From a virus (taxonomy: Duplodnaviria; Heunggongvirae; Uroviricota; Caudoviricetes): 10,240 nucleotides of DNA. Numbering within the stretch: position 1 is the first letter of the stretch; every line of letters begins with the position of its first letter. Both the position numbers and the translations under genes were made by a program. Shown piece after piece: positions 1 to 10,240 of the stretch. The stretch is taken from positions 1 to 10,240 of IMG/VR virus record IMGVR_UViG_2529292726_000022. The stretch is one strand, 5' to 3'. The notes below the pieces were generated by a model that worked only from the letters and a program-made list of their open reading frames with translations, had not been told where the DNA came from and did no database searches.

Positions 1-1820
1 CCACCGAGATCCAGCGTCAGGCGCAGCAGTTTGTCAGAACCTTCGACAAACTCCGCGTTTTCAATCAGCGCCACACGCAGGTCAACTTTGGCGAAGTCGT
101 CAAAGGTGATGGTTTCCTGAATCGGGTCGTCAGCCAGTGGGCCAGTTACCGGTGCAGCTGTGGCTTTCACTTCTTCTTTGGATGCTTCCACCAGTGCTTC
201 CACCTGTTTCATATCGATACGGTTATACAGTGCCTTGAACGGATTCACTTTATGGCCCAGCAGCGGTTGCTGGATACCATCCCAGGTCAGTTCTGTATTC
301 AGGAATGCTTCTGCACGTTCAGTCAGTTTCGGCAGTACCGGTTTCAGGTACGTCATCAGCACGCGGAACAGGTTAATGCCCATAGAGCAAATCGCCTGCA
401 GATCGGCATCGCGTCCTTCCTGCTTCGCCACCACCCACGGAGCCTGTTCATCAACATAGCGGTTAGCCAGGTCAGCCAGTGCCATGATTTCACGGATAGC
501 TTTGCCAAATTCGCGGCTTTCCCATGCTTCGCCAATCACTTCAGCGGCATCAGTAAAGGTTTTGTACAGTTGCGGGTCAGCCAGTTCGCTTGCCAGCACG
601 CCGTCAAAACGCTTGTTGATAAAGCCTGCATTACGGGAGGCCAGGTTAACCACTTTGTTAACGATATCGGCATTCACACGCTGAACGAAATCTTCCAGAT
701 TGAGATCGATATCATCAATGCGCGAAGAGAGTTTCGCAGTGTAGTAGTAACGCAGGCTGTCGGCGTCAAAATGATTCAGCCAGGTGCTGGCTTTAATAAA
801 GGTGCCGCGAGACTTGGACATCTTCGCGCCGTTCACCGTCACATAGCCGTGAACAAACAGGTTGGTCGGCTTGCGGAAGTTGCTGCCTTCCAGCATGGCA
901 GGCCAGAACAGGCTGTGGAAGTAAACGATATCTTTGCCGATGAAGTGGTACAGCTCGGCGGTGGAGTCTTTCTTCCAGTAATCGTCGAAGCTGGTAGTGT
1001 CGCCGCGTTTGTCGCACAGATTCTTGAAAGAACCCATGTAGCCAATCGGCGCGTCCAGCCAGACGTAGAAGTATTTGCCCGGTGCGTTCGGAATTTCAAA
1101 ACCGAAGTAAGGTGCGTCACGGGAGATATCCCACTGTTGCAGGCCAGATTCAAACCACTCCTGCATTTTGTTTGCCACCTGCTCCTGCAACGCACCGCTG
1201 CGGGTCCATGCCTGCAACATTTCGCTGAAAGAAGGCAGATCAAAGAAGAAGTGTTCGGAATCACGCATTACCGGTGTAGCGCCAGAAACCACTGATTTCG
1301 GCTCGATCAGTTCCGTCGGGCTGTATGTCGCGCCGCAGACTTCACAGTTATCGCCGTATTGATCCGGCGCTTTACATTTCGGGCATGTGCCTTTTACAAA
1401 ACGGTCCGGCAGGAACATGCCTTTTTCCGGGTCGTACAGCTGAGAGATGGTGCGGTTTTTAATAAAACCGTTCTCTTTCAGGCGAGTATAGATAAGCTCG
1501 GACAACTGACGGTTCTCTTCGCTGTGCGTCGAGTGATAGTTGTCATAGCTGATGTTAAAGCCTGCGAAATCAGTCTGATGTTCCTGACTCATTTCGCCAA
1601 TCATCTGCTCCGGTGTGATACCAAGCTGCTGTGCTTTCAGCATGATCGGCGTACCGTGGGCATCGTCGGCACAGATGAAATTAACCTCGTGGCCGCGCAT
1701 TCGCTGGTAACGAACCCAGACATCAGCCTGGATGTGCTCCAGCATATGGCCGAGGTGGATTGAGCCGTTAGCGTACGGCAGCGCGCACGTCACCAGAATT
1801 TTCTTCGCGACTTGGGTCAT
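1..1820 (-). CDS. metG: Methionine--tRNA ligase (MetRS), partial: N-terminal ~606 codons in window, C-terminus beyond window start
   Basis: Minus-strand translation from ATG (complement of 1818-1820) reads [29 protein letters not shown]... with the class I aaRS HLGH motif (encoded ~1746-1757) and KMSKS (encoded 810-824). The frame stays open to position 1, so it is absent from the ORF track (no stop in window). Plus-strand ORFs 160-459, 252-1295, 484-684 are antisense shadows. Confidence 0.95.
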
Positions 1821-1977
1821 AGTAGGCATTACTTCTTTGTAGTGAAAAGGGGCTTGATAGTAACAAAATGGCCTTATGTCTGCCATGTGATAACAGCATT
1901 TCTCATAAATGATTAAATGTCGTAGCTGGAGTACACTACAAGGCGACAATTGCGCAAATTAAAATAAAGGAGACGGG
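1821..1977. promoter_or_regulatory. Divergent metG / mrp intergenic promoter region
   Basis: 157-bp AT-rich gap between divergently oriented starts; SD-like AAGGAG at 1967-1972, 5 nt before the mrp ATG (1978). Individual -10/-35 elements not resolved by eye. Confidence 0.5.
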
Positions 1978-3078
1978 ATGAGCGAGTCCAAATCGCCGGA
2001 TGCCCTGAGAGCAATGGTAGCCGGTACGCTGGCTAATTTTCAGCACCCAACCCTGAAACACAACCTGACTACGCTTAAAGCGTTACACCATGTTGCGTTG
2101 ATGGATGACACACTGCATGTCGAACTAATCATGCCTTTCGTGTGGAATAAGCCTTTTGAAGACCTGAAAGAGCAATGTAGTGGTGATCTGCTCCGTATCA
2201 CTGGCGCAAAGGCTATTGACTGGAAGCTGTCGTACAACATTGCCACGCTTAAGCGCGTCAAAAACCAACCAGGCATTAATGGCGTTAAGAACATTATCGC
2301 CGTCAGCTCAGGCAAGGGCGGCGTGGGTAAATCCTCCACGGCGGTAAACCTGGCACTGGCGTTGGCTGCTGAAGGTGCGAAAGTTGGTATTTTGGATGCC
2401 GATATCTATGGTCCATCAATTCCAACCATGCTGGGCGCGGAAAACCAACGTCCAACCTCACCTGACGGTACTCACATGGCACCTATCATGTCTCATGGCC
2501 TGGCAACCAACTCTATTGGTTATCTGGTCACCGACGACAATGCAATGGTGTGGCGTGGACCGATGGCCAGCAAGGCGCTGATGCAGATGTTGCAGGAAAC
2601 TCTATGGCCTGATCTGGACTATCTCGTTCTCGATATGCCGCCGGGCACTGGTGATATTCAGTTGACGCTGGCGCAGAACATTCCTGTAACTGGTGCGGTT
2701 GTGGTAACTACGCCGCAAGACATCGCGCTGATCGATGCGAAGAAAGGCATTGTGATGTTCGAAAAAGTCGAAGTGCCGGTACTGGGTATCGTCGAAAACA
2801 TGAGTGTGCATATTTGCAGTAACTGCGGTCATCACGAGCCAATTTTTGGCACCGGTGGCGCACAGAAACTGGCCGAGAAATACAACACGCAGTTGTTAGG
2901 CCAAATGCCACTTCATATCTCTCTTCGTGAAGATCTGGATAACGGAACACCAACCGTTATTAGTCGTCCAGATAGCGAATTTACAGCTATTTATCGTGAC
3001 CTCGCAGATCGCGTTGCTGCCCAAATGTATTGGCAAGGTGAAGTAATACCTGGCGAAATCGCATTCCGCGCAGTGTGA
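1978..3078 (+). CDS. apbC: Fe-S cluster carrier ATPase Mrp/ApbC (NBP35 family)
   Basis: 366-aa ORF with SD; deviant Walker A SSGKGGVGKSST, CxxC motif (CSNCGH), and the MSESKSPDALRAMVAGTLANFQHP... N-terminus typical of enterobacterial Mrp; conserved divergent arrangement with metG. Confidence 0.95.
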   Translation: MSESKSPDALRAMVAGTLANFQHPTLKHNLTTLKALHHVALMDDTLHVELIMPFVWNKPFEDLKEQCSGDLLRITGAKAIDWKLSYNIATLKRVKNQPGINGVKNIIAVSSGKGGVGKSSTAVNLALALAAEGAKVGILDADIYGPSIPTMLGAENQRPTSPDGTHMAPIMSHGLATNSIGYLVTDDNAMVWRGPMASKALMQMLQETLWPDLDYLVLDMPPGTGDIQLTLAQNIPVTGAVVVTTPQDIALIDAKKGIVMFEKVEVPVLGIVENMSVHICSNCGHHEPIFGTGGAQKLAEKYNTQLLGQMPLHISLREDLDNGTPTVISRPDSEFTAIYRDLADRVAAQMYWQGEVIPGEIAFRAV

Positions 3079-3083
3079 TAAAA

Positions 3084-3104
3084 AGGCGGTGCATTGCACC
3101 GCCT
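3084..3104. terminator. GC-rich hairpin (aggcggtgc-att-gcaccgcct) between convergent mrp and UmuD'-like gene
   Basis: 9-bp perfect stem, 3-nt loop. On the minus strand it is followed by TTTTTAT (complement of 3077-3083), a good intrinsic terminator for the minus-strand gene ending at 3116. On the plus strand it is preceded by AAAA but lacks a U-tract. Confidence 0.6.
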
Positions 3105-3115
3105 AATCAGTTCTC

Positions 3116-3505
3116 CTACATCACGGGACAATCATCAAACTCGCCACTTCTTGCGTCGTTGATAATGTGAGTGATCACACCAAACACGGCATTGCTGCCC
3201 GTGCATGCATCGTCATCCTTTGGCAATGCTTCCTTCTTACCGGTTCTTAAATCCTCCAGATGCTGACGTGGGTACTTCCGGTATCTTTTTACGCGATATT
3301 CCCCATCCAGAGCGCATACAAGCAGAGAACCATCAACCGGGGTAAGTGAGGAATCGACCACCAGCAATGCACCCTGTAATATTCCCTCACGATGATGACT
3401 ATCAGCTGCCCTCATGAAGTAGGTCGCTGAAGGATGTCTAATTATCTGCTGATCAAGAGAAATACGGCTCTCAGCATAATCCGCCGCAGGAGAAGGGAAG
3501 CCCAT
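3116..3505 (-). CDS. UmuD-family S24 peptidase, natively N-terminally truncated (UmuD'-like), 129 aa
   Basis: Starts MGFPSPAADYAESRISLDQQIIRHPSATYF..., co-linear with UmuD from the residue after its Cys24-Gly25 self-cleavage site. Ser of the Ser-Lys dyad retained (AADSH vs UmuD SGDSM), Lys retained (VKRYR vs VKKLQ). In-frame TAA 12 nt upstream of the ATG (complement of 3518-3520) rules out an N-terminal extension. SD AAGAGG precedes ATG. No umuC-like gene follows. Confidence 0.8.
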   Translation of the reverse strand: MGFPSPAADYAESRISLDQQIIRHPSATYFMRAADSHHREGILQGALLVVDSSLTPVDGSLLVCALDGEYRVKRYRKYPRQHLEDLRTGKKEALPKDDDACTGSNAVFGVITHIINDARSGEFDDCPVM

Positions 3506-3521
3506 AATACTCGCCTCTTAA

Positions 3522-3541
3522 CACTGTATATACATACAGTA
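3522..3541 (-). promoter_or_regulatory. LexA operator (SOS box)
   Basis: Minus-strand TACTGTATGTATATACAGTG: CTGT-N8-ACAG palindrome matching the consensus TACTGTATATATATACAGTA at 17/20, about 16 nt upstream of the UmuD'-like start codon, the same geometry as the E. coli umuDC operator. Confidence 0.8.
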
Positions 3542-3566
3542 TATGTTGAAGCTATATATTTTTGAA
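3538..3566 (-). promoter_or_regulatory. Putative sigma70 promoter of the UmuD'-like gene, overlapped by the LexA box
   Basis: Minus-strand -35 TTCAAA (complement of 3561-3566), 17-nt spacer, -10 TATACT (complement of 3538-3543); the -10 overlaps the upstream half of the LexA box. Confidence 0.5.
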
Positions 3567-3725
3567 CTCTATCTCTTAAAAAAGATGTTAATAAGATGCT
3601 AACTATTGAAAGGCATAAATATATACAATTCCAACAAACGTTATTTTTAACAAATTTTTTCTCTCCGTTGACTTTTGCGAAAGCCTTGTCTGGCCTAAAT
3701 TGCGCGGAAGCTACTTTTTCCTTAC

Positions 3726-3750
3726 AGAGTTATCCACAGAGTTATGCACT
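3726..3750 (+). repeat. Tandem 12-bp repeat containing DnaA-box-like 9-mers
   Basis: agagTTATCCAC / agagTTATGCAC in direct tandem (3726-3737, 3738-3749). TTATCCACA at 3730-3738 is a perfect DnaA box consensus; TTATGCACT at 3742-3750 matches TTATNCACA at 8/9. Confidence 0.3.
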
Positions 3751-3836
3751 TGCATGTATAACCTATACACACTATCTTAATTCGCAAGACACTGATGTTG
3801 CGGTATTGAAGGTTCATTGGGTTAAAAATAGACATT

Positions 3837-3867
3837 AAAAAGCCCAGTTGACTAGGCTGGGCTTTTT
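3837..3867. terminator. Bidirectional intrinsic terminator hairpin
   Basis: AAAAAGCCCAG-(9-nt loop)-CTGGGCTTTTT: 11-bp perfect inverted repeat with an A-tract 5' and T-tract 3', so it is U-tract-flanked on both strands. No confident CDS ends at it on either strand. Confidence 0.65.
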
Positions 3868-3900
3868 AAAAGGAAACAGAGTTTGCGGCTCTGTTCCTGA

Positions 3901-3920
3901 GCCATAAGTATCTGGCGACT
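3901..3920 (+). repeat. Direct repeat copy 1 (gccaTAAGTATCTGGCGACT)
   Basis: 20-bp sequence repeated at 4074-4093 with one mismatch (16-bp identical core TAAGTATCTGGCGACT at 3905-3920 and 4078-4093). Confidence 0.7.
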
Positions 3921-4073
3921 GAATTAAGATTAACCGAATGTACTGGATTCATCAAGAAACGTTGAGTGGTCATACCAGGTAATAATGACCATTTACTAAA
4001 CATCGTTGTTCTCAAAGAAGATTTAAGTCCAGGTTTTTGGTGACTCTAAAACCTTACCTTAACTCGAAATCGT

Positions 4074-4093
4074 GCCGTAAGTATCTGGCGACT
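4074..4093 (+). repeat. Direct repeat copy 2 (gccgTAAGTATCTGGCGACT)
   Basis: Second copy, 173 bp downstream of copy 1; preceded by AAATCGTGCCG (4066-4076), which recurs inside the small ORF at 4189-4199. Confidence 0.7.
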
Positions 4094-4167
4094 ACAGATA
4101 TTGCAACTGCAAAGGCAAGCCCAAAGGTATTTGCAGCTAGGCGCGATAAAACTAAGTGAGGCCTGTT

Positions 4168-4251
4168 ATGGTTAACTTACTGTTCAAAATCGTGCCGCCG
4201 ATGTTCGCGATTATCAAAGCGATCATTGAGTACGTAAACCAGCGTCCATAA
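4168..4251 (+). CDS. Candidate small hydrophobic protein, 27 aa (MVNLLFKIVPPMFAIIKAIIEYVNQRP)
   Basis: ATG at 4168 preceded by SD-like GTGAGG with 6-nt spacing; stop TAA 4249-4251; terminator hairpin 14 nt downstream. Peptide is mostly hydrophobic with a charged C-terminal tail. Too short for the ORF track. Confidence 0.3.
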   Translation: MVNLLFKIVPPMFAIIKAIIEYVNQRP

Positions 4252-4264
4252 CGCTAGTTGCTAC

Positions 4265-4297
4265 AGGCCCCATCAAGAGCATGGGGCCTCTTTATCG
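4265..4297 (+). terminator. Hairpin (aggcccca-N9-tggggcct) plus CTTTAT tract downstream of small ORF
   Basis: 8-bp GC-rich perfect stem followed by a short T-rich tract on the plus strand. On the minus strand it sits 18 nt past the stop of the operon's last gene (4307) but has no U-tract in that direction. Confidence 0.5.
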
Positions 4298-4306
4298 TAC
4301 TATTGC

Positions 4307-4933
4307 TTATTTTTTACGGACTGAGTTGTTCACTGCTCTGGCAATCTTCTCCCGCAATTGCTGCGTTCCGTGGTACTGAACCGCAATATCTCTCAACTCG
4401 TTCACCAGTTCTCGAATCTGGTGATCTTTAAGCTCATTATTTGGGTGATTGGTAACAACTCTGGTTAATTCACCCTTGTCTTTTGCTCTTACGTATGCAG
4501 CTCTTGTGCATTCGACCCATGTATTACCGCCTACATTAACTTCGTAGATTAGGCTGGACTTATCTGTCAATTCGGAACAAATACGGGCCGTGGTCTGGCA
4601 ACTAGAGCATTCGCAGTTATCGCGGAAACCGTGATCTACCGGTCGAGAAAGAGGTTTAACTTTTTCATCCAACTTCATCACAGCATCGTGATAAGCGTTC
4701 CAGCCGTCATCTTTACCAAGTTGATAAATCTCTGAAGGCTCCATGTAGTCTATATCGCAACCTTCTTCATCCGATCTATCTGGTCGCTTCCCTGGTAATC
4801 GCTCATAAAAACGATTTCTGTCTCGACGTTCGGCTCTCAGTGCTAACGCAAGAAGTTGCTCAAGCGAGGTATTTGCACCAGCAATAATTTCATTGAGAAT
4901 ATCTTCTGTGAGATCTTTCGCTACCGTGCTCAT
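4307..4933 (-). CDS. Hypothetical protein, 208 aa (last gene of operon)
   Basis: Long minus-strand ORF; ATG (complement 4931-4933) overlaps the stop of the upstream gene (ATGA); contains a Cys cluster (CECSSCQ). No recognisable family by eye. Confidence 0.7.
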   Translation of the reverse strand: MSTVAKDLTEDILNEIIAGANTSLEQLLALALRAERRDRNRFYERLPGKRPDRSDEEGCDIDYMEPSEIYQLGKDDGWNAYHDAVMKLDEKVKPLSRPVDHGFRDNCECSSCQTTARICSELTDKSSLIYEVNVGGNTWVECTRAAYVRAKDKGELTRVVTNHPNNELKDHQIRELVNELRDIAVQYHGTQQLREKIARAVNNSVRKK

Positions 4934-5313
4934 TTATCTCTCTCAGTATGTTGCGATGGCGTAAATTTGACGACATCAAATATTTTGGATGGCATCAACT
5001 TTATCCGCGAGCTTAGTTCGGCTCTTCTCTGTAATGCGGTTAATAATGTTTTCGTTCTGACGCCTTCGTGTATCCTCATCCCTGGCACAAGAACTACATC
5101 GCAGGGGAGATGCTCAGGTGACAAATCATTTTGGGCATCGCTAATCAGTCGTGTAATCTCTCTTTCAAGCCGACCGCCTAGCTCTGTTTTAGTGCAATGT
5201 TCTGACCAATCGCCAGCCTCAAGCAGCGCGAGAATGCTTAAAATATCGTCCAATAGATCAGTGGTATTATCGACTTCCTTCTGAAGCTCACCGGCTACTG
5301 ATTTATGCATCAT
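4930..5313 (-). CDS. Hypothetical protein, 127 aa
   Basis: Minus-strand ORF starting ATGATG (MMHKS...), start overlaps stop of upstream gene (ATGA at 5310-5313). Confidence 0.7.
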   Translation of the reverse strand: MMHKSVAGELQKEVDNTTDLLDDILSILALLEAGDWSEHCTKTELGGRLEREITRLISDAQNDLSPEHLPCDVVLVPGMRIHEGVRTKTLLTALQRRAELSSRIKLMPSKIFDVVKFTPSQHTERDK

Positions 5314-5963
5314 TCGTCATCCTCATCCGAGTCATCCTCATCACAGGATGAGAGTAGTGGGTTAGTCATTCGCCCTACTTGAGTGGCATAGCCACGCCGA
5401 CAGAGATTGCGCAGCACACTGTATATTTCGAACATCTCGGTTCGTTCATCGCCAACATCAAGCTCAGATGCTATAGCGTGGCATTCAGTCGCGAGAGCCG
5501 ATATTTTCTGAAATAACTCTGCATTATTCACTGTTCGACTCCTGCGGCGTTCTGGTAGTGGCATCCAGTGTGTGGCATTGCTAATCAGACCATATTCATT
5601 AGTTTGAGGATGGTTGCCGTTATCGTCTCCGTATTTAAGACTCTCCATAAAGCCATAATGCCTATCACCATTAACGCTCACAAAGCCGTAATAAGCAGGT
5701 ATAACGCCGATCTCACACATAACCAGTAACGGAAAACTAGTTCTCCAATTTAGCTCGCCAATTACAGGCATTCGCTCACTACAGCTTATCCAACCATCCT
5801 TAGATGCGGCTGTATTGGCATAGGCCTTACGGTGCTTCTGTAGCTCTGCTGCAATCGCTCTCACGACTTCAACTGGTGCCCTTGCAGCAAACTCAATGTT
5901 GGTGATCAGCTCATTAAGATATTTCTCGCTTGGGTAGCATTTCTTATTGTTAACGGTGGTCAT
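5310..5963 (-). CDS. Hypothetical phage-type protein, possible DUF551-like domain, acidic C-terminal tail, 217 aa
   Basis: Minus-strand ORF; motifs DGWISCSERMPV ... ATHWMPLPE resemble the W-I-S-x-x-x-R-(L/M)-P ... HWMPLP signature I associate with prophage DUF551 proteins (memory-based). Ends in DEDDSDEDDE. Start ATG overlaps upstream stop (TAATG). Confidence 0.7.
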   Translation of the reverse strand: MTTVNNKKCYPSEKYLNELITNIEFAARAPVEVVRAIAAELQKHRKAYANTAASKDGWISCSERMPVIGELNWRTSFPLLVMCEIGVIPAYYGFVSVNGDRHYGFMESLKYGDDNGNHPQTNEYGLISNATHWMPLPERRRSRTVNNAELFQKISALATECHAIASELDVGDERTEMFEIYSVLRNLCRRGYATQVGRMTNPLLSSCDEDDSDEDDE

Positions 5964-6148
5964 TAGGCAGCTCTCTCAACAACAAGCAATTCGTCGTAGT
6001 CATAATCAGTTTCGGAACCATCCGTACCGAACAGAGTCACTTTGTCATTTTCCATCCAAAAAGATTTAACCGCACATTGTTGACCTTTAGATGTTATGAG
6101 CACATCACCAGGGATTACGTCTTCAGCGCGAACCTCTAGTGTTCTCAT
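5963..6148 (-). CDS. Hypothetical small protein, 61 aa (MRTLEVRAEDVIPGDVL...)
   Basis: The ORF track starts at a TTG (6184) inside the upstream gene; the ATG at complement 6146-6148 has a strong SD (AAAGAGGG) about 7 nt upstream and lies 4 nt after the upstream TAG, so is preferred. Confidence 0.6.
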   Translation of the reverse strand: MRTLEVRAEDVIPGDVLITSKGQQCAVKSFWMENDKVTLFGTDGSETDYDYDELLVVERAA

Positions 6149-6152
6149 CGTG

Positions 6153-6566
6153 CTAACCCTCTTTGGTGAAAACGCCTGATGCAATACTGTTTATGATGCT
6201 GTCAGTACAGGGAGTAGAAAGCTGGGCATCTCCAGCTATTTTCATGACTTCGACATCCGCATATCGAATACCGAGGTGTATCAGACCTGCTATACCTGAC
6301 TTAAGTCGAACATTTTCCATAAACAGATCCTTTTCCCGCTGTTTAACGGTCTCCAGCTCAACACGCAACTTCTCAATTTCGGCAGCCATGTAGTAACCAA
6401 CCATAGCGAATACGGCAAAAGAGTTGTCTGCCTCATCAGGCGACACTGAGGCCATTAGCAGACCATCGTAATAATCGTGACTCCCATTGGTGATCGCCAC
6501 CGCATAGGAGTCGTGGTTCTCACGCTTGTGAATGAGAACTACGGGGTTTTCGATTTTGTTACTCAT
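6153..6566 (-). CDS. Hypothetical protein, 137 aa
   Basis: Minus-strand ORF with ATG at complement 6564-6566, preceded by AAGAGAAAAACAC; central charged segment (EIEKLRVELETVKQREKDLFMENVRLK) suggests a helical/coiled region. Confidence 0.7.
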   Translation of the reverse strand: MSNKIENPVVLIHKRENHDSYAVAITNGSHDYYDGLLMASVSPDEADNSFAVFAMVGYYMAAEIEKLRVELETVKQREKDLFMENVRLKSGIAGLIHLGIRYADVEVMKIAGDAQLSTPCTDSIINSIASGVFTKEG

Positions 6567-6704
6567 GTGTTTTTCTCTTCTTTGCTGTTACATAAGCACT
6601 ACCAAGTGCTGGTTTATTTTCACAAATAAGAAAAGGTAGAAAACAATTTATTTAAGGCCACAACTTATGGCCTTTATTTATTCATGCCGAAGGATTTGTA
6701 GCGT

Positions 6705-7085
6705 CTAATTGCCGGATAAAATGGGGTGAGGTGCTTGCCAGTAGGCTCCACCGGTCCATGTGAACCCCATGCGAATAAGAGGGTTTATTGCGGCTTTGGT
6801 AGACTCCGATTCGACACTGGCTTTTCGAAACTCTTGAACCTCTTTCGCCAACCTGTATGTAATTGTGCAGGGGACGATTGCAGCCCAGCCTTTCTCATGA
6901 CTGTTAATGACCATCTGGATGTGACCATCCAGAATAGGTTGATTAGGCATGTTATTGAAAACGTCTGCCTGTTTTTGAATGTGAATAAAAAGCCTTGCCA
7001 GCTCCATTTGCTCACTACGAGACAAGGGATTATCAAGAGGGCTTTTTGCAAAAGCGGCTATACGCTGTGCGTCAATGCCAAACAT
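6705..7085 (-). CDS. Hypothetical protein, 126 aa
   Basis: Minus-strand ORF; ATG overlaps the stop of the upstream gene by 1 nt (TGATG at 7083-7087). Confidence 0.7.
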   Translation of the reverse strand: MFGIDAQRIAAFAKSPLDNPLSRSEQMELARLFIHIQKQADVFNNMPNQPILDGHIQMVINSHEKGWAAIVPCTITYRLAKEVQEFRKASVESESTKAAINPLIRMGFTWTGGAYWQAPHPILSGN

Positions 7086-7789
7086 CAGCGCACCTCACCA
7101 TCTTTATGGCTGGAGTTAACTTCCGCCATTAAATGTCTGACGTAATCGACAAGAGAGCCACCTGGTGGAATCTGGCATTCCTCAACTAACTGGAAGTAGA
7201 TATCCGCTGCATTACGTGTATTGCTACCCGCACATATTCTTTCTTCCCGAAGTGCATGAAGCTCGTTGATCAAACGGTCACACTCTCCGTTACGCTGATC
7301 CACAACGGCCTCAAGCTCTGCGACGCGTTCACCTGGCGTCTTACCTTCTTTGCGTTGGATGGTAACGACGAAATCGCCAATTGCAGGGACGTTGTAATCC
7401 AGCTCAAGGTAGTTTTTGGCACCGCTGCGGACGAACTCACCCGCGAACATGGTGGCGAACATCGCAGAGGCCACTTCGCCGTTGAAAAGTGACTCAAGAT
7501 CTAACGGAGTCCCGGCAGCAAGAGCCTCTTTTGCTGTATCCATTGCATCCATGAACCGATCAAACTCACTAGCGCGCTTTTCCATGTCTTTCCATTGCTC
7601 GCTCCAACGTTTGGCAACGAAGTCTATGAATGTTTTCGCGGATTCATCAAAATTCCCCTCAAACTTAACGATGCCTTTATCAATAATAATCTGGCCTACC
7701 GCATCCTCTGCATAACCTTTCAATGTAAACTTGAAAGGAAAATCAGAATGGCCTGTGACGTTAAAATGCTCTAACTGGAGGTTGTTCAT
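7085..7789 (-). CDS. Hypothetical protein, 234 aa
   Basis: Minus-strand ORF with ATG at complement 7787-7789, preceded by the same AAGAGAAAAACAC initiation region as the 6153-6566 gene. Confidence 0.7.
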   Translation of the reverse strand: MNNLQLEHFNVTGHSDFPFKFTLKGYAEDAVGQIIIDKGIVKFEGNFDESAKTFIDFVAKRWSEQWKDMEKRASEFDRFMDAMDTAKEALAAGTPLDLESLFNGEVASAMFATMFAGEFVRSGAKNYLELDYNVPAIGDFVVTIQRKEGKTPGERVAELEAVVDQRNGECDRLINELHALREERICAGSNTRNAADIYFQLVEECQIPPGGSLVDYVRHLMAEVNSSHKDGEVR

Positions 7790-7850
7790 GTGTTTTTCTC
7801 TTATCGTTTAGTTACTACATTCTTACACAAATTAAGTAAGTATTTACCTA

Positions 7851-9536
7851 TCATTTAACGCGTTTGAAAACGTATACGCTGACTGTGATCCCGGTATCTT
7901 CAAACTCGTTGGTAAACGACTTCCCTCTGGCATAAACGTAATTATCCATCGTCATCCAGTCCAGTATTGGCGCAGTGCCCGGCAATACTGCTACAAGACG
8001 CCCGCCGACTTTCAGATGCCCCAGCGCAGCCAGCGTGTGCTCTCTATGACGACCAAGCGAGTACGGCGGGTTCATAACGATTTTGTCGAACTGATAACCT
8101 GCGTTGTCCTCAGACCACTTTATGAAGTCGCAGCAAATCGTGTTCGTATACCCTTTTCCACGCAGGATATCAGCGAAGAGAGGTGCGATTTCTATGCAGG
8201 TAACATCTTCCAGATCGGCGTTAATATAGGCCAGAAGATCCCCACGTCCGGCTTGAGGCTCCAGCAGCTTCTCACCAGGCTTCAATTCAGTGGCTCTGGC
8301 AACGTACTCAGCAATCAAGCGTGGGGTAGGGTAGAACTGGTGTGATTTTGTATCCGGTATTAAACCGGTAGCCACAATCGTATTTAGCGTATGGCCGATG
8401 TCATACGGGAACTGCCAGTGCTTTTTCTCCTGCACGCCGCCAATGAAGCTCAGTGTGCGCTCAAGCTCTTCCACCTGCGACTTCTGGAGAGCTGAATCAG
8501 AGAAGTACCATACGCCTTTGTCTTTGCTCAATCGCCCGTCACGAAGCGCAGTGCGAACCGGCACGGAGATCGTCTTCTGGATTAACCCGAACTGCTTTGG
8601 TGCCCGTGTTTTTGGCGCAGTTCGGCATGGCGCGGGAATTGCAGCAGGCATACTGTAAGCCAGCACCTCATTCAACTTCCAGGCCACGTCAGGATGTATT
8701 TCAAAGTGAACGTTGCCGTTCTTGAACATCTTCACGCGCATCAGATTTCCATCGACGTTCATCCAGTCACCGGTCTGGCAGTCGTTTGCCCGATACGCAG
8801 CTGATAGCACCTCAGCAGTGCGGTTGATGGTAATAAATTCTTTGTGCGCGAAGAAATGAAGCAAGACACGCAGATCGTCGATGTAGTCCTCTTTGCGATA
8901 GTTCACGCTAACGCTGTCCCGCCAGAAATCAGAAATGCAGTCAGCGATTATCAGACGCTCGCTGAAACCGTTTGTCTTATTTGTCTTGTGCGCAGGACTC
9001 AGCGCCTTAAACAAGCCATACACGCGCTCAGAGAGATATTTGTGCCTGTCATTCAGCAAATTAAGCATCGTGGGTATGACCGTTTCTGCTTTGAACTCCG
9101 GTACACCAACGAACTCTTTAACCTTCATCTGGTAGCCGGTTCTGTCAGTTTTGATGACTTCCTGTTTGCCCTCTATAAACTGCTCGCGCCACTCATCTCG
9201 ACGGGAAGCTGGCATGATCAGCAAAACGTTAGTCATGTCCGTGACCTTCCTCCAGTACTCGGCCCAAATATTCTGTTTCACCCATTCCAGATCGACTTTA
9301 TCCAACCAACCTCGATTTAAACGCGAGCGATCTTCATCTGGTCGATGGTTTAGTCTCAGCAGGCGATTAATCATGTTGTGGCGTTCGTCGCCATAAACGA
9401 AGTCGTGTACCTGATACATGAAGGCGATCTCTTTCTCGCACTCGGCCACGATTTCGTGGATGACATTCATTTCCTGACGATAGTCGATAGCCGTGTTTGA
9501 GCTGGCATCGTCGCTGATGGAAAGGGCTGTATTCAT
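7851..9536 (-). CDS. 561-aa protein: ~380-aa N-terminal region of unknown function plus C-terminal gamma-class N6-adenine (amino) methyltransferase domain
   Basis: Motif order FYPTP (motif X-like), LEPQAGRGD (motif I; EPQAGRGD encoded 8238-8261), ~55 aa, then MNPPY (motif IV, encoded 8061-8072), typical of gamma-class amino-MTases. Only ~70 aa follow NPPY, so no obvious C-terminal target-recognition domain. First gene of the operon. Confidence 0.8.
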   Translation of the reverse strand: MNTALSISDDASSNTAIDYRQEMNVIHEIVAECEKEIAFMYQVHDFVYGDERHNMINRLLRLNHRPDEDRSRLNRGWLDKVDLEWVKQNIWAEYWRKVTDMTNVLLIMPASRRDEWREQFIEGKQEVIKTDRTGYQMKVKEFVGVPEFKAETVIPTMLNLLNDRHKYLSERVYGLFKALSPAHKTNKTNGFSERLIIADCISDFWRDSVSVNYRKEDYIDDLRVLLHFFAHKEFITINRTAEVLSAAYRANDCQTGDWMNVDGNLMRVKMFKNGNVHFEIHPDVAWKLNEVLAYSMPAAIPAPCRTAPKTRAPKQFGLIQKTISVPVRTALRDGRLSKDKGVWYFSDSALQKSQVEELERTLSFIGGVQEKKHWQFPYDIGHTLNTIVATGLIPDTKSHQFYPTPRLIAEYVARATELKPGEKLLEPQAGRGDLLAYINADLEDVTCIEIAPLFADILRGKGYTNTICCDFIKWSEDNAGYQFDKIVMNPPYSLGRHREHTLAALGHLKVGGRLVAVLPGTAPILDWMTMDNYVYARGKSFTNEFEDTGITVSVYVFKRVK

Positions 9537-9577
9537 AATTACACCATTAAATAATTTGTTTTCTGATTGGTGTAATT
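9537..9577. promoter_or_regulatory. Perfect 9-bp inverted repeat abutting the methyltransferase start codon
   Basis: AATTACACC-N23-GGTGTAATT (9537-9545 / 9569-9577) directly adjacent to the ATG at 9536, so on the mRNA it covers the ribosome-binding region. Candidate operator or 5'-UTR stem-loop. Confidence 0.4.
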
Positions 9578-9633
9578 ATCGCAAACTTGAAAAGGCATAA
9601 AAGCTGCATTCATAGGCGTTACAGCAGATTTAA

Positions 9634-9660
9634 GGCGTAAAAATGGGGGCTGTCGCCCCC
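9634..9660 (-). terminator. Intrinsic terminator of the small gene 9678-9914
   Basis: Minus-strand GGGGGC-GACA-GCCCCC hairpin (9645-9660) followed by ATTTTTAC, 18 nt past the stop codon. Confidence 0.6.
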
Positions 9661-9677
9661 TGTCGACTGGTGCTGTA

Positions 9678-9914
9678 TTAGAGTGCGTATTGCGTTTTGT
9701 GCGGCTGCTTATTCAAGTCATGGCGATGCGTGAGCTCCCGCATCATGTCTTCAAGGCGACTCTTTGTGTCGTCGAGCTGGTCGGCCATTGCACCTAAAAG
9801 CTGGCGAACGGCCATCGGATCGTCGCTGTTTAGTGATGGCATTTTAGAACCTGCTTTAGAAGACATAAGGTTGATTGCAGACATCAACATCGTTAGAGAG
9901 GTATTAGACGTCAA
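9678..9914 (-). CDS. Hypothetical small protein (up to 78 aa; true start uncertain)
   Basis: Minus-strand ORF with its own terminator. The track start is a TTG; internal ATGs (MLMSAINL..., MPSLNSDD...) are alternative starts. The 5' end abuts the presumed IS21-family terminus, so it may be the 3' remnant of a disrupted gene. Confidence 0.45.
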   Translation of the reverse strand: MTSNTSLTMLMSAINLMSSKAGSKMPSLNSDDPMAVRQLLGAMADQLDDTKSRLEDMMRELTHRHDLNKQPHKTQYAL

Positions 9915-9918
9915 CTAG

Positions 9919-10240
9919 TTTTGCCGACTCGCGCCAACTATACTGGCCGCACCCTTCAGTGCGACATCAAGTCGCGCTTGTTACTGCCTTCGCTGTCTTT
10001 TTCCTGTAGCTTTCACCTTTCAGTTCGAACATATATCCGTGATGGATCAGCCGGTCTGCCGCCGCCACCGCCATAGTCTCATCCACGAAGATGCTGCCCC
10101 ACATGCTGAACGGATGGTTACTGGTTATCACCAGGCTCCCACGTTCATAGCGATGCGCTATTAACTCGAACAGTACTCCCGTTTCGGCGCTGTCGCGTTT
10201 GACATAGCCAAGATCATCCACCACTATCACCCGGTAGCGA
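9919..10240 (-). mobile_element. IS21-family insertion sequence, istB-proximal end (partial; exact terminus not determined)
   Basis: Inferred from the istB fragment; the terminal inverted repeat should lie in about 9919-9966, downstream of the istB stop, but I could not identify it by eye. Confidence 0.55.
9967..10240 (-). CDS. istB: IS21-family transposition helper ATPase IstB, C-terminal part (5' end beyond window)
   Basis: ...IVVDDLGYVKRD...LFELIAHRYERGSLVITSNHPFSMWGSIFVDETMAVAAADRLIHHGYMFELKGESYRKK... matches the IstB Walker B-to-C-terminus signature (D-D/E-L-G-Y, RYE, TSN, DRLxHH, ELKGESYR). The track's M at 10230 is internal. Confidence 0.9.
   Translation of the reverse strand, partial: RYRVIVVDDLGYVKRDSAETGVLFELIAHRYERGSLVITSNHPFSMWGSIFVDETMAVAAADRLIHHGYMFELKGESYRKKTAKAVTSAT

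Follow-up and report, generated by a model that had tools for sequence, protein, structure and literature searches.

A gene on the minus strand of the viral record IMGVR_UViG_2529292726_000022 encodes a 561-amino-acid (aa) protein, here called the DUF4942-methyltransferase, in which a large N-terminal region carrying the DUF4942 domain is joined to a C-terminal methyltransferase domain. The DNA analyzed, referred to as the window, comprises the first 10,240 nucleotides of that record. This orphan gene is found on mobile elements and has no partner nuclease, and the reading favored here, which is considered fairly probable as a whole, is that it encodes a stand-alone DNA adenine methylase that serves against restriction. 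The C-terminal 165 residues would form a minimal EcoKI/TaqI-type catalytic module, with a TP cap, an S-adenosylmethionine (SAM) loop, and an NPPY motif, and the basic, conserved N-terminal region of ~395 aa would replace the absent C-terminal recognition domain and hold or select DNA. Methylation would take place on the DNA of the carrier element itself, in the plasmid state or in lytic replication prior to packaging, and DNA modified in this way would resist the restriction systems of the next host. Four parts of this scheme are inferred, namely, the DNA substrate, the N6-methyladenine (m6A) product, DNA binding by the N-terminal region, and the anti-restriction benefit.

The gene and its orthologues

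The gene was delimited as follows.

7851..9536, minus strand: complete coding sequence of the DUF4942-methyltransferase, one intact open reading frame (ORF) from ATG to stop, 561 aa

The protein shares 99 to 100% identity with RefSeq proteins named "DUF4942 domain-containing protein," including a 100% match in a 112-kb Escherichia coli plasmid, and 92% identity (tblastn) with gp095 of Salmonella phage SSU5 (SSU5_095; YP_006906727.1), which is labeled "DNA methyltransferase." The SSU5-type annotation is itself based on homology only. The protein also matches PHROG 6263 ("DNA methyltransferase") over its full length (E value, 2.4e-299; residues 1 to 561 versus profile positions 1 to 548 of 548), and its sole Pfam match is to DUF4942 (PF13708), at residues 140 to 295, encoded at window positions 8652 to 9119 (74 bits versus a cutoff of 25; E value, 1.7e-20). 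A preliminary description of this DNA, made from the sequence alone, had proposed a homology comparison and a domain prediction for the N-terminal region, and the RefSeq, SSU5, and DUF4942 matches are what these returned. The gene would be less novel than that description held, because it is a phage-plasmid gene that was already cataloged. The SSU5 and pHCM2/SSU5-like RefSeq orthologues, with identities of 92% (SSU5) to 100%, have the same length of 561 aa, and the SSU5 orthologue occupies the same syntenic position, after a phrog_5508 gene and its terminator. The window differs from SSU5 in that this upstream gene is cut by an insertion sequence (IS) of the IS21 family, and in nothing substantive otherwise.

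The ratio of nonsynonymous to synonymous substitution rates (dN/dS) relative to the SSU5 orthologue was 0.086 overall, 0.077 in the N-terminal part, and 0.105 in the methyltransferase part. Residue conservation was assessed with 28 homologues down to 33% identity and with 67 down to ~27% identity. In the homologue alignments, Q400, E426, G430, D470, N489, and P491 were invariant, and Y402, P403, T404, P405, P427, A429, G432, E449, F471, and P490 were at least 90% conserved. Conservation across the family extends to each of motifs X, I, II, III, and IV, in keeping with catalytic competence, with NPP(F/Y) present at motif IV in 140 of 144 representatives that share at most 50% pairwise identity. 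The gene is intact and under purifying selection, and its motifs are not chance matches because they are conserved in distant homologues.

Catalytic domain and conserved motifs

The methyltransferase part and its motifs have the following positions.

7854..8348, minus strand: residues 397 to 561, minimal 165-aa class I Rossmann amino-methyltransferase domain (AlphaFold2 and Foldseek)
8322..8339, minus strand: motif X, QFYPTP, residues 400 to 405, the "TP" cap ahead of the pre-core helix
8238..8264, minus strand: motif I, LEPQAGRGD, residues 425 to 433, SAM-binding loop, with E-P-x-A-G-x-G kept family-wide
8061..8087, minus strand: motif IV, DKIVMNPPY, residues 484 to 492, catalytic loop

The order of motifs X, I, and IV is that of the gamma class. 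The preliminary description had read FYPTP, EPQAGRGD, and NPPY in this order near the C terminus, followed by only ~70 residues and lacking the usual C-terminal target recognition domain, behind a large N-terminal region, and all of this held. The three motifs lie where it had placed them (residues 401 to 405, 426 to 433, and 489 to 492, at window positions 8322 to 8336, 8238 to 8261, and 8061 to 8072, respectively) and are conserved in the family, 69 residues remain after NPPY, and the N-terminal region is present and conserved. In the model obtained with AlphaFold2 from the family alignment (predicted local distance difference test [pLDDT] score, 81; predicted template modeling [pTM] score, 0.68), QFYPTP is followed by a helix at residues 406 to 416, and the 69 residues beyond NPPY contribute the final helix and strands of the Rossmann fold. 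Because these residues complete the fold, no room is left for a C-terminal target recognition domain.

Motif X (QFYPTP) aligns with GQY-FTP of EcoKI HsdM, in a 158-column alignment that includes NPPF, and with "ETPP" of M.TaqI; motif I (LEPQAGRGD) aligns with LEPACAHG of M.TaqI, and motif IV aligns with NPPY of M.TaqI and NPPF of EcoKI HsdM. Among PDB sequences, M.TaqI was the best match to the family profile (E value, 6e-4), followed by another DNA adenine methylase. Among PDB structures, Foldseek matched residues 397 to 561 to TrmN (E value, 4.5e-8), M.TaqI (1.5e-7), and a type I M subunit (1.6e-7), with E values of 1e-7 to 1e-8 over 170 to 220 columns and with many other methyltransferases matched besides. 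The PADLOC models matched were mad2 (E value, 1.1e-15), from the methylation-associated defense system (MADS), and MTase_II (2.1e-10), both at residues 394 to 523 only. Residues 396 to 526 match methyltransferase domains in large PHROG phage families (772 to 3925 positions; E values, 1e-19 to 1e-5), and a phage protein labeled "DarB-like antirestriction protein" was matched by tblastn. The combination of a TP cap and NPP(Y/F) is a mark of the EcoKI/TaqI-like adenine methylases in DarB-type polyvalent proteins (Iyer et al. 2017, PMC5512222). Judging from these matches, the closest sequence relatives are mobile-element or defense methyltransferases taken to act on DNA.

DUF4942 region

The following segments were distinguished in the N-terminal region.

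9297..9536, minus strand: residues 1 to 80, disordered tip and long helices, the least conserved part
8577..9296, minus strand: residues 81 to 320, conserved DUF4942 core, basic, mixed alpha/beta
8979..9002, minus strand: residues 179 to 186, LSPAHKTN loop, family signature L-S-x-x-H-x-T-N
8349..8576, minus strand: residues 321 to 396, small alpha/beta connector subdomain with conserved G366, F376, Y378, and P394

In the first segment, residues 1 to 17 have pLDDT values below 50, helices span residues 15 to 62, and the mean top-residue frequency per column over residues 1 to 80 is 0.20 to 0.34. Invariant or near-invariant residues of the DUF4942 core are W95, R164, S180, H183, T185, N186, D221, R223, D262, H277, and N289. 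L179, S180, H183, T185, and N186 of the LSPAHKTN loop are invariant in the 67 diverse sequences, and the loop is flexible and of low confidence in the model, with pLDDT values below 50 at residues 184 to 186. The mean top-residue frequency reaches 0.46 to 0.70 at residues 141 to 200 and 261 to 300, versus 0.33 to 0.67 in the methyltransferase domain, and the median pI across the family is 9.2 for the DUF4942 core versus 5.95 for the catalytic domain. No structural relative was found for the region of ~395 aa, since Foldseek searches against the PDB matched the methyltransferase domain alone, and no nuclease fold was found in it.

Because the region is basic and conserved, it is plausible that it supplies specificity. 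It nevertheless seems too conserved for a classic variable recognition domain, and this lack of variability makes it probable that the family members recognize a common target or are relaxed in specificity.

Absence of a partner nuclease

No nuclease or helicase family was detected in the 561-aa protein, and none of the nine neighboring ORFs in the window had a nuclease, helicase, ATPase, or defense match in searches of Pfam, NCBIfam, and PADLOC. All nine fall into PHROG families without an assigned function, and one of them has a DUF551 domain. By the same Pfam, NCBIfam, and PADLOC searches, no hsdS-like gene was found nearby. No cognate endonuclease gene or domain, as expected for a type II or type IIG restriction-modification (R-M) system, is present.

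To survey the genomic context, 80 loci were fetched from diverse Proteobacteria, and all ORFs were clustered in the 66 loci of at least 9 kb. Only the methylase family itself was widely shared (62 of the 66), and the next commonest neighbor family was found in 9; the commonest neighbors were an SLT transglycosylase, a CI-like repressor, and a lambda-type integrase. The conclusion that the gene has no partner nuclease follows from the fact that no neighbor family occurs in more than 9 of the 66 loci. On IncHI2 plasmids, the family gene adjoins a Dam methylase gene, and in the early operons of lambdoid prophages, it directly adjoins N6_N4 and C5 DNA methylase genes. On one metagenomic element, it lies between UvrD-helicase and DnaG-primase genes, and some members share their element with integrase or SLT transglycosylase genes.

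In two sister phage-plasmids, Klebsiella pneumoniae pU-KP1685-2 and E. coli p.CT29-P1, only the first 62 to 157 codons of the gene are left at the same syntenic spot, and immediately past the remnant in both lies a complete hsdR-hsdS-hsdM type I R-M operon on the opposite strand (L017, positions 5001 to 10180, and L018, positions 5001 to 10471, the counterparts of window positions 7851 to 9536). The remnant and the adjoining operon show that the gene is dispensable and that the site exchanges R-M cargo, and the locus is an exchange hotspot for such cargo. A shared N-terminal targeting tag, similar to DarB-like capsid targeting, was considered for families that match the N terminus only and was rejected, as these are remnants of the same gene; the N-terminus-only matches to PHROG 16000 and PHROG 25525 are explained in this way.

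Substrate and biological role

A DNA adenine-N6 substrate is considered likely. It is favored by the M.TaqI match of the family profile, by the alignment of motif X with EcoKI HsdM, by the pairing of TP cap and NPP(Y/F), and by the matches to large phage protein families, to mad2, and to a 187-aa methylase of the IncF leading region. The preliminary description had named the protein an N6-adenine DNA methyltransferase, of which the gamma motif order stood, and the DNA substrate has to be deduced, since the core matches RsmC/TrmN6 no less well than HsdM. Several observations weigh against a DNA adenine methylase with an anti-restriction role. In hhalign comparisons, the family profile matched RsmC (16S rRNA N2-methylguanosine; E value, 3.5e-9), TrmN6/YfiC (tRNA m6A; 7.8e-9), and PrmC (1.2e-6), with EcoKI HsdM at just 2.4e-5. 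TrmN was the top Foldseek match, and among the Pfam matches of the members' methyltransferase part, MTS was the commonest label (52 of 67), ahead of N6_Mtase (12) and Eco57I (2), so that the catalytic core alone does not appear to discriminate the substrate. The N-terminal core equals the catalytic domain in conservation, whereas sequence-specific methylases have variable recognition domains, and a DNA-binding fold was not detectable in the N-terminal region. In addition, the DNA directly upstream of the methylase gene showed no convincing sigma-70 promoter, and a literature search found no methylation data for the 561-aa protein or any family member. The same search found no published methylomes of strains with SSU5/pHCM2-like plasmids; an E. 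coli ST101 methylome preprint was set aside as a source, as it concerns IncF and IncI plasmids and not an SSU5-like element.

Such core matches would also fit an amino-methyltransferase of RNA (rRNA or tRNA) or protein that alters host translation or another host target and binds this target through its N-terminal region. Matches of the core to RsmC, TrmN6, and PrmC are no weaker than that to HsdM, the MTS label and the TrmN structure match point the same way, weak NCBIfam matches to Erm and KsgA were obtained, and the N-terminal domain is conserved, not variable. However, these matches span only the generic motif I-to-VI core and fall far under the cutoffs (e.g., 18.8 versus 243 bits), with the RNA-methyltransferase models of NCBIfam (RsmC, TrmN6/YfiC, and KsgA/Erm) scoring 16 to 19 bits versus cutoffs of 171 to 350. 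The RsmC, TrmN6, and PrmC alignments are limited to the generic core and omit motif X, which aligns solely with the DNA enzymes HsdM and M.TaqI. Far stronger matches were obtained to mobile-element or defense methyltransferases (1e-15 to 1e-19), and the gene adjoins bona fide DNA methylase genes and is found on mobile elements only. An RNA or protein substrate is regarded as quite unlikely on this evidence.

Of the three roles that the preliminary description had offered, phage self-protection (anti-restriction) fits best. A DNA methyltransferase serving mainly in epigenetic regulation of the element (replication, partition, lysis-lysogeny, or packaging), as Dam or CcrM does, would account for the high conservation of the whole protein, including its putative recognition part, which fits one fixed target as in those two enzymes. 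Some members also lie within replication modules, by UvrD helicase, DnaG primase, and lambda-P-like genes, and the same element has a second, Dam-like "phage N-6-adenine-methyltransferase." Such a main role is improbable nonetheless, as the gene is dispensable, to judge from the remnants of 62 to 157 codons by a type I R-M operon in the sister phage-plasmids, and clusters with other orphan methylases, as in anti-restriction sets. Because many unrelated element types with differing replication systems carry the gene, a role tied to the circuitry of one element is disfavored. The remaining role, the modification arm of an uncharacterized defense module, is unsupported because the contexts vary and no partner is conserved. 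That the protein is the modification subunit of an R-M or defense system (type II, type IIG, or like MADS or bacteriophage exclusion [BREX]) with an overlooked partner is very hard to credit. The PADLOC models mad2 and MTase_II do match the catalytic domain, the locus and a type I R-M operon are interchangeable in the sister plasmids, and the immediate neighbors are small proteins of unknown function; however, the PADLOC matches are restricted to residues 394 to 523, 0 of 9 neighboring ORFs match nuclease, ATPase, or defense models, no neighbor family occurs in more than 9 of the 66 loci, and the N-terminal region has no nuclease fold. These results also bear out the orphan status, without a nuclease or helicase, that had been claimed for the gene.

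It is conceivable, if unlikely, that DUF4942 is an unrecognized substrate-handling module through which a methyltransferase core devoid of a recognition domain becomes a DNA adenine methylase of low specificity or one coupled to replication or single strands. If so, the enzyme would be a broad-spectrum anti-restriction device that is functionally like M.EcoGIX or M.EcoGII and of different ancestry. M.EcoGIX and M.BceJIII are orphan methylases of mobile elements that are single-strand specific, have very low sequence specificity (SAY), and protect incoming DNA against restriction (PMC7736820), and they may be functional analogues of the DUF4942-methyltransferase. Membership in the M.EcoGIX family was rejected, since M.EcoGIX belongs to the beta class with DPPY (PMC7736820) and the protein studied here has the gamma order and NPPY.

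Comparison with known methyltransferases

Like EcoKI HsdM and M.TaqI, the DUF4942-methyltransferase has a Rossmann fold, the motif order X-I-IV, a TP cap followed by a helix, and an NPP(Y/F) loop, with marginal sequence similarity (E values of 6e-4 to M.TaqI and 2.4e-5 to EcoKI HsdM). It differs from M.TaqI in having no C-terminal recognition domain and from EcoKI in having no separate specificity subunit, and it has instead, unlike these gamma-class enzymes, an N-terminal region of ~395 aa for which no structural relative was found.

The catalytic part and the DarB-type module of polyvalent proteins are apparently one and the same minimal methyltransferase module, which has no recognition domain, a likeness drawn to the module type and not to P1 DarB itself. 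DarB-type modules are carried by mobile elements and linked to anti-restriction, as in the polyvalent proteins of PMC5512222. Unlike the DarB dyad, the protein has no LPD36 domain and no SNF2 helicase and is not a giant multidomain protein, having the DUF4942 fusion instead, and, unlike for DarB, nothing points to packaging of the DUF4942-methyltransferase in the virion. The best single profile match to the catalytic domain was mad2 of MADS (PADLOC PDLC04134), which covers the methyltransferase core only, and no other MADS components were found, with 0 of the 9 neighboring ORFs matching any PADLOC model.

A homologous catalytic domain was also found in a 187-aa "class I SAM-dependent methyltransferase" (WP_001298559.1) of the leading region of IncF plasmids, which shares 31% identity over 121 residues (pairwise E value, 2e-14) and has Q-F/L-x-x-P, EPSAG, and NPPF. 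Unlike the DUF4942 fusion, WP_001298559.1 consists of the catalytic domain only. On an IncFIA plasmid (L003, positions 4506 to 6477), the 187-aa methyltransferase directly follows a DUF3560 protein, among antirestriction and psiB genes, and it appears to be uncharacterized. The pair of DUF3560 protein and 187-aa methyltransferase was considered as a split form of the fusion and rejected, as the DUF3560 protein has no similarity to the N-terminal region.

Distribution of the family

An HMMER scan with residues 1 to 394 alone against 1.84 billion representatives (50% identity clusters; E values of ≤1e-3) found at least 612 clusters. Among the 150 matches listed, nearly all were 500 to 590 aa long and matched at the N terminus, which leaves room for the same C-terminal methyltransferase, and DUF4942 was present in all 67 diverse members scanned. 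The two-part architecture of DUF4942 and methyltransferase thus looks fixed across the family. Homologues were found in phages, including those of Pseudomonas and Aeromonas, and in phage-plasmids, IncHI2 plasmids, prophages, and integrative elements, and the family is restricted to mobile elements. In PLSDB, 2136 of 72,556 plasmid records (~3%) have a match covering at least 80% of the protein, and IncHI2 plasmids (180 to 380 kb) carry homologues with ~31% identity.

The family is already cataloged (PF13708, PHROG 6263, SSU5 gp095, and RefSeq), and the literature search found passing mentions of DUF4942 in four papers and no experimental study. Orphan methylases of mobile elements are a well-known kind, and both the type of gene and its location are as expected. 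Host entry by phages and plasmids depends in part on the orphan methylases that they carry, and both SSU5-like phage-plasmids and IncHI2 plasmids are of clinical relevance as carriers of resistance genes. The target of the DUF4942 enzyme would help explain how these carrier elements cross restriction barriers, and the enzyme, if promiscuous, could become a laboratory tool.

Upstream noncoding features

Two features were identified upstream of the methylase gene.

9645..9660, minus strand: intrinsic-terminator-like hairpin, GGGGGC-GACA-GCCCCC followed by a T run (terminator scan)
9535..9579, minus strand: 12-nucleotide (nt) perfect inverted repeat, ATAATTACACCA ... TGGTGTAATTAT, 21 nt apart (repeat search)

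The hairpin lies between the upstream gene and the methylase gene and is retained in SSU5. The 3' arm of the inverted repeat covers the ATG of the methylase gene, and the repeat is a possible operator or translation-masking hairpin of uncertain relevance. A role as a conserved regulator over the start codon was rejected, its conservation being weak because 4 of the 12 pairs are broken in SSU5. An Rfam scan of the whole window gave no match.

Source element and remainder of the window

Window positions 3000 to 9905 share 98 to 99.5% nucleotide identity with ~110-kb E. coli plasmids. The annotation of the best-matching plasmid lists metG, apbC, a HumD translesion protein, small hypothetical genes, and then a "DUF4942 domain-containing protein," and farther along, it lists RNase HI, a phage Dam-like methylase, a 3'-5' exonuclease, dihydrofolate reductase, and thymidylate synthase. 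This gene content places the window in an SSU5/pHCM2-like E. coli phage-plasmid. Past window position 9905, the reference plasmid is no longer matched. The C-terminal part of an IS21-family IstB is encoded at positions 9967 to 10239 on the minus strand (Pfam E value, 3.7e-28), and of the upstream phrog_5508 gene (~188 aa), which is cut by this IS21-family element, the last 78 codons are left (positions 9678 to 9914).

At the other end, positions 1 to 3078 contain metG (methionyl-tRNA synthetase), on the minus strand and running off the window start, and apbC in a chromosome-like arrangement. This pair is only ~90% identical at the nucleotide level to the E. coli chromosomal copy and is present on 222 plasmid records; it appears to be a diverged housekeeping block picked up by the phage-plasmid. 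The gene for a HumD-family (phage P1-type UmuD') translesion subunit follows at positions 3116 to 3505 (NCBIfam E value, 8.1e-66), with no umuC-like partner within the window. Positions 3506 to 4306 are AT rich (G+C fraction of 0.36 at positions 3501 to 4000 versus ~0.5 nearby); the reference plasmid has no gene annotated there, and Rfam gave no match.

Seven same-strand ORFs of 73 to 234 aa lie downstream of the methylase gene at positions 4307 to 7789, including the one for the 234-aa protein at positions 7085 to 7789. One of the seven encodes a DUF551 protein, and the others are members of PHROG families without an assigned function. This interval is occupied in related plasmids by ISEcp1-blaCTX-M-15, IS66, HD-domain, or Ea22-like genes, and it is best described, from these comparisons, as a plastic accessory segment.

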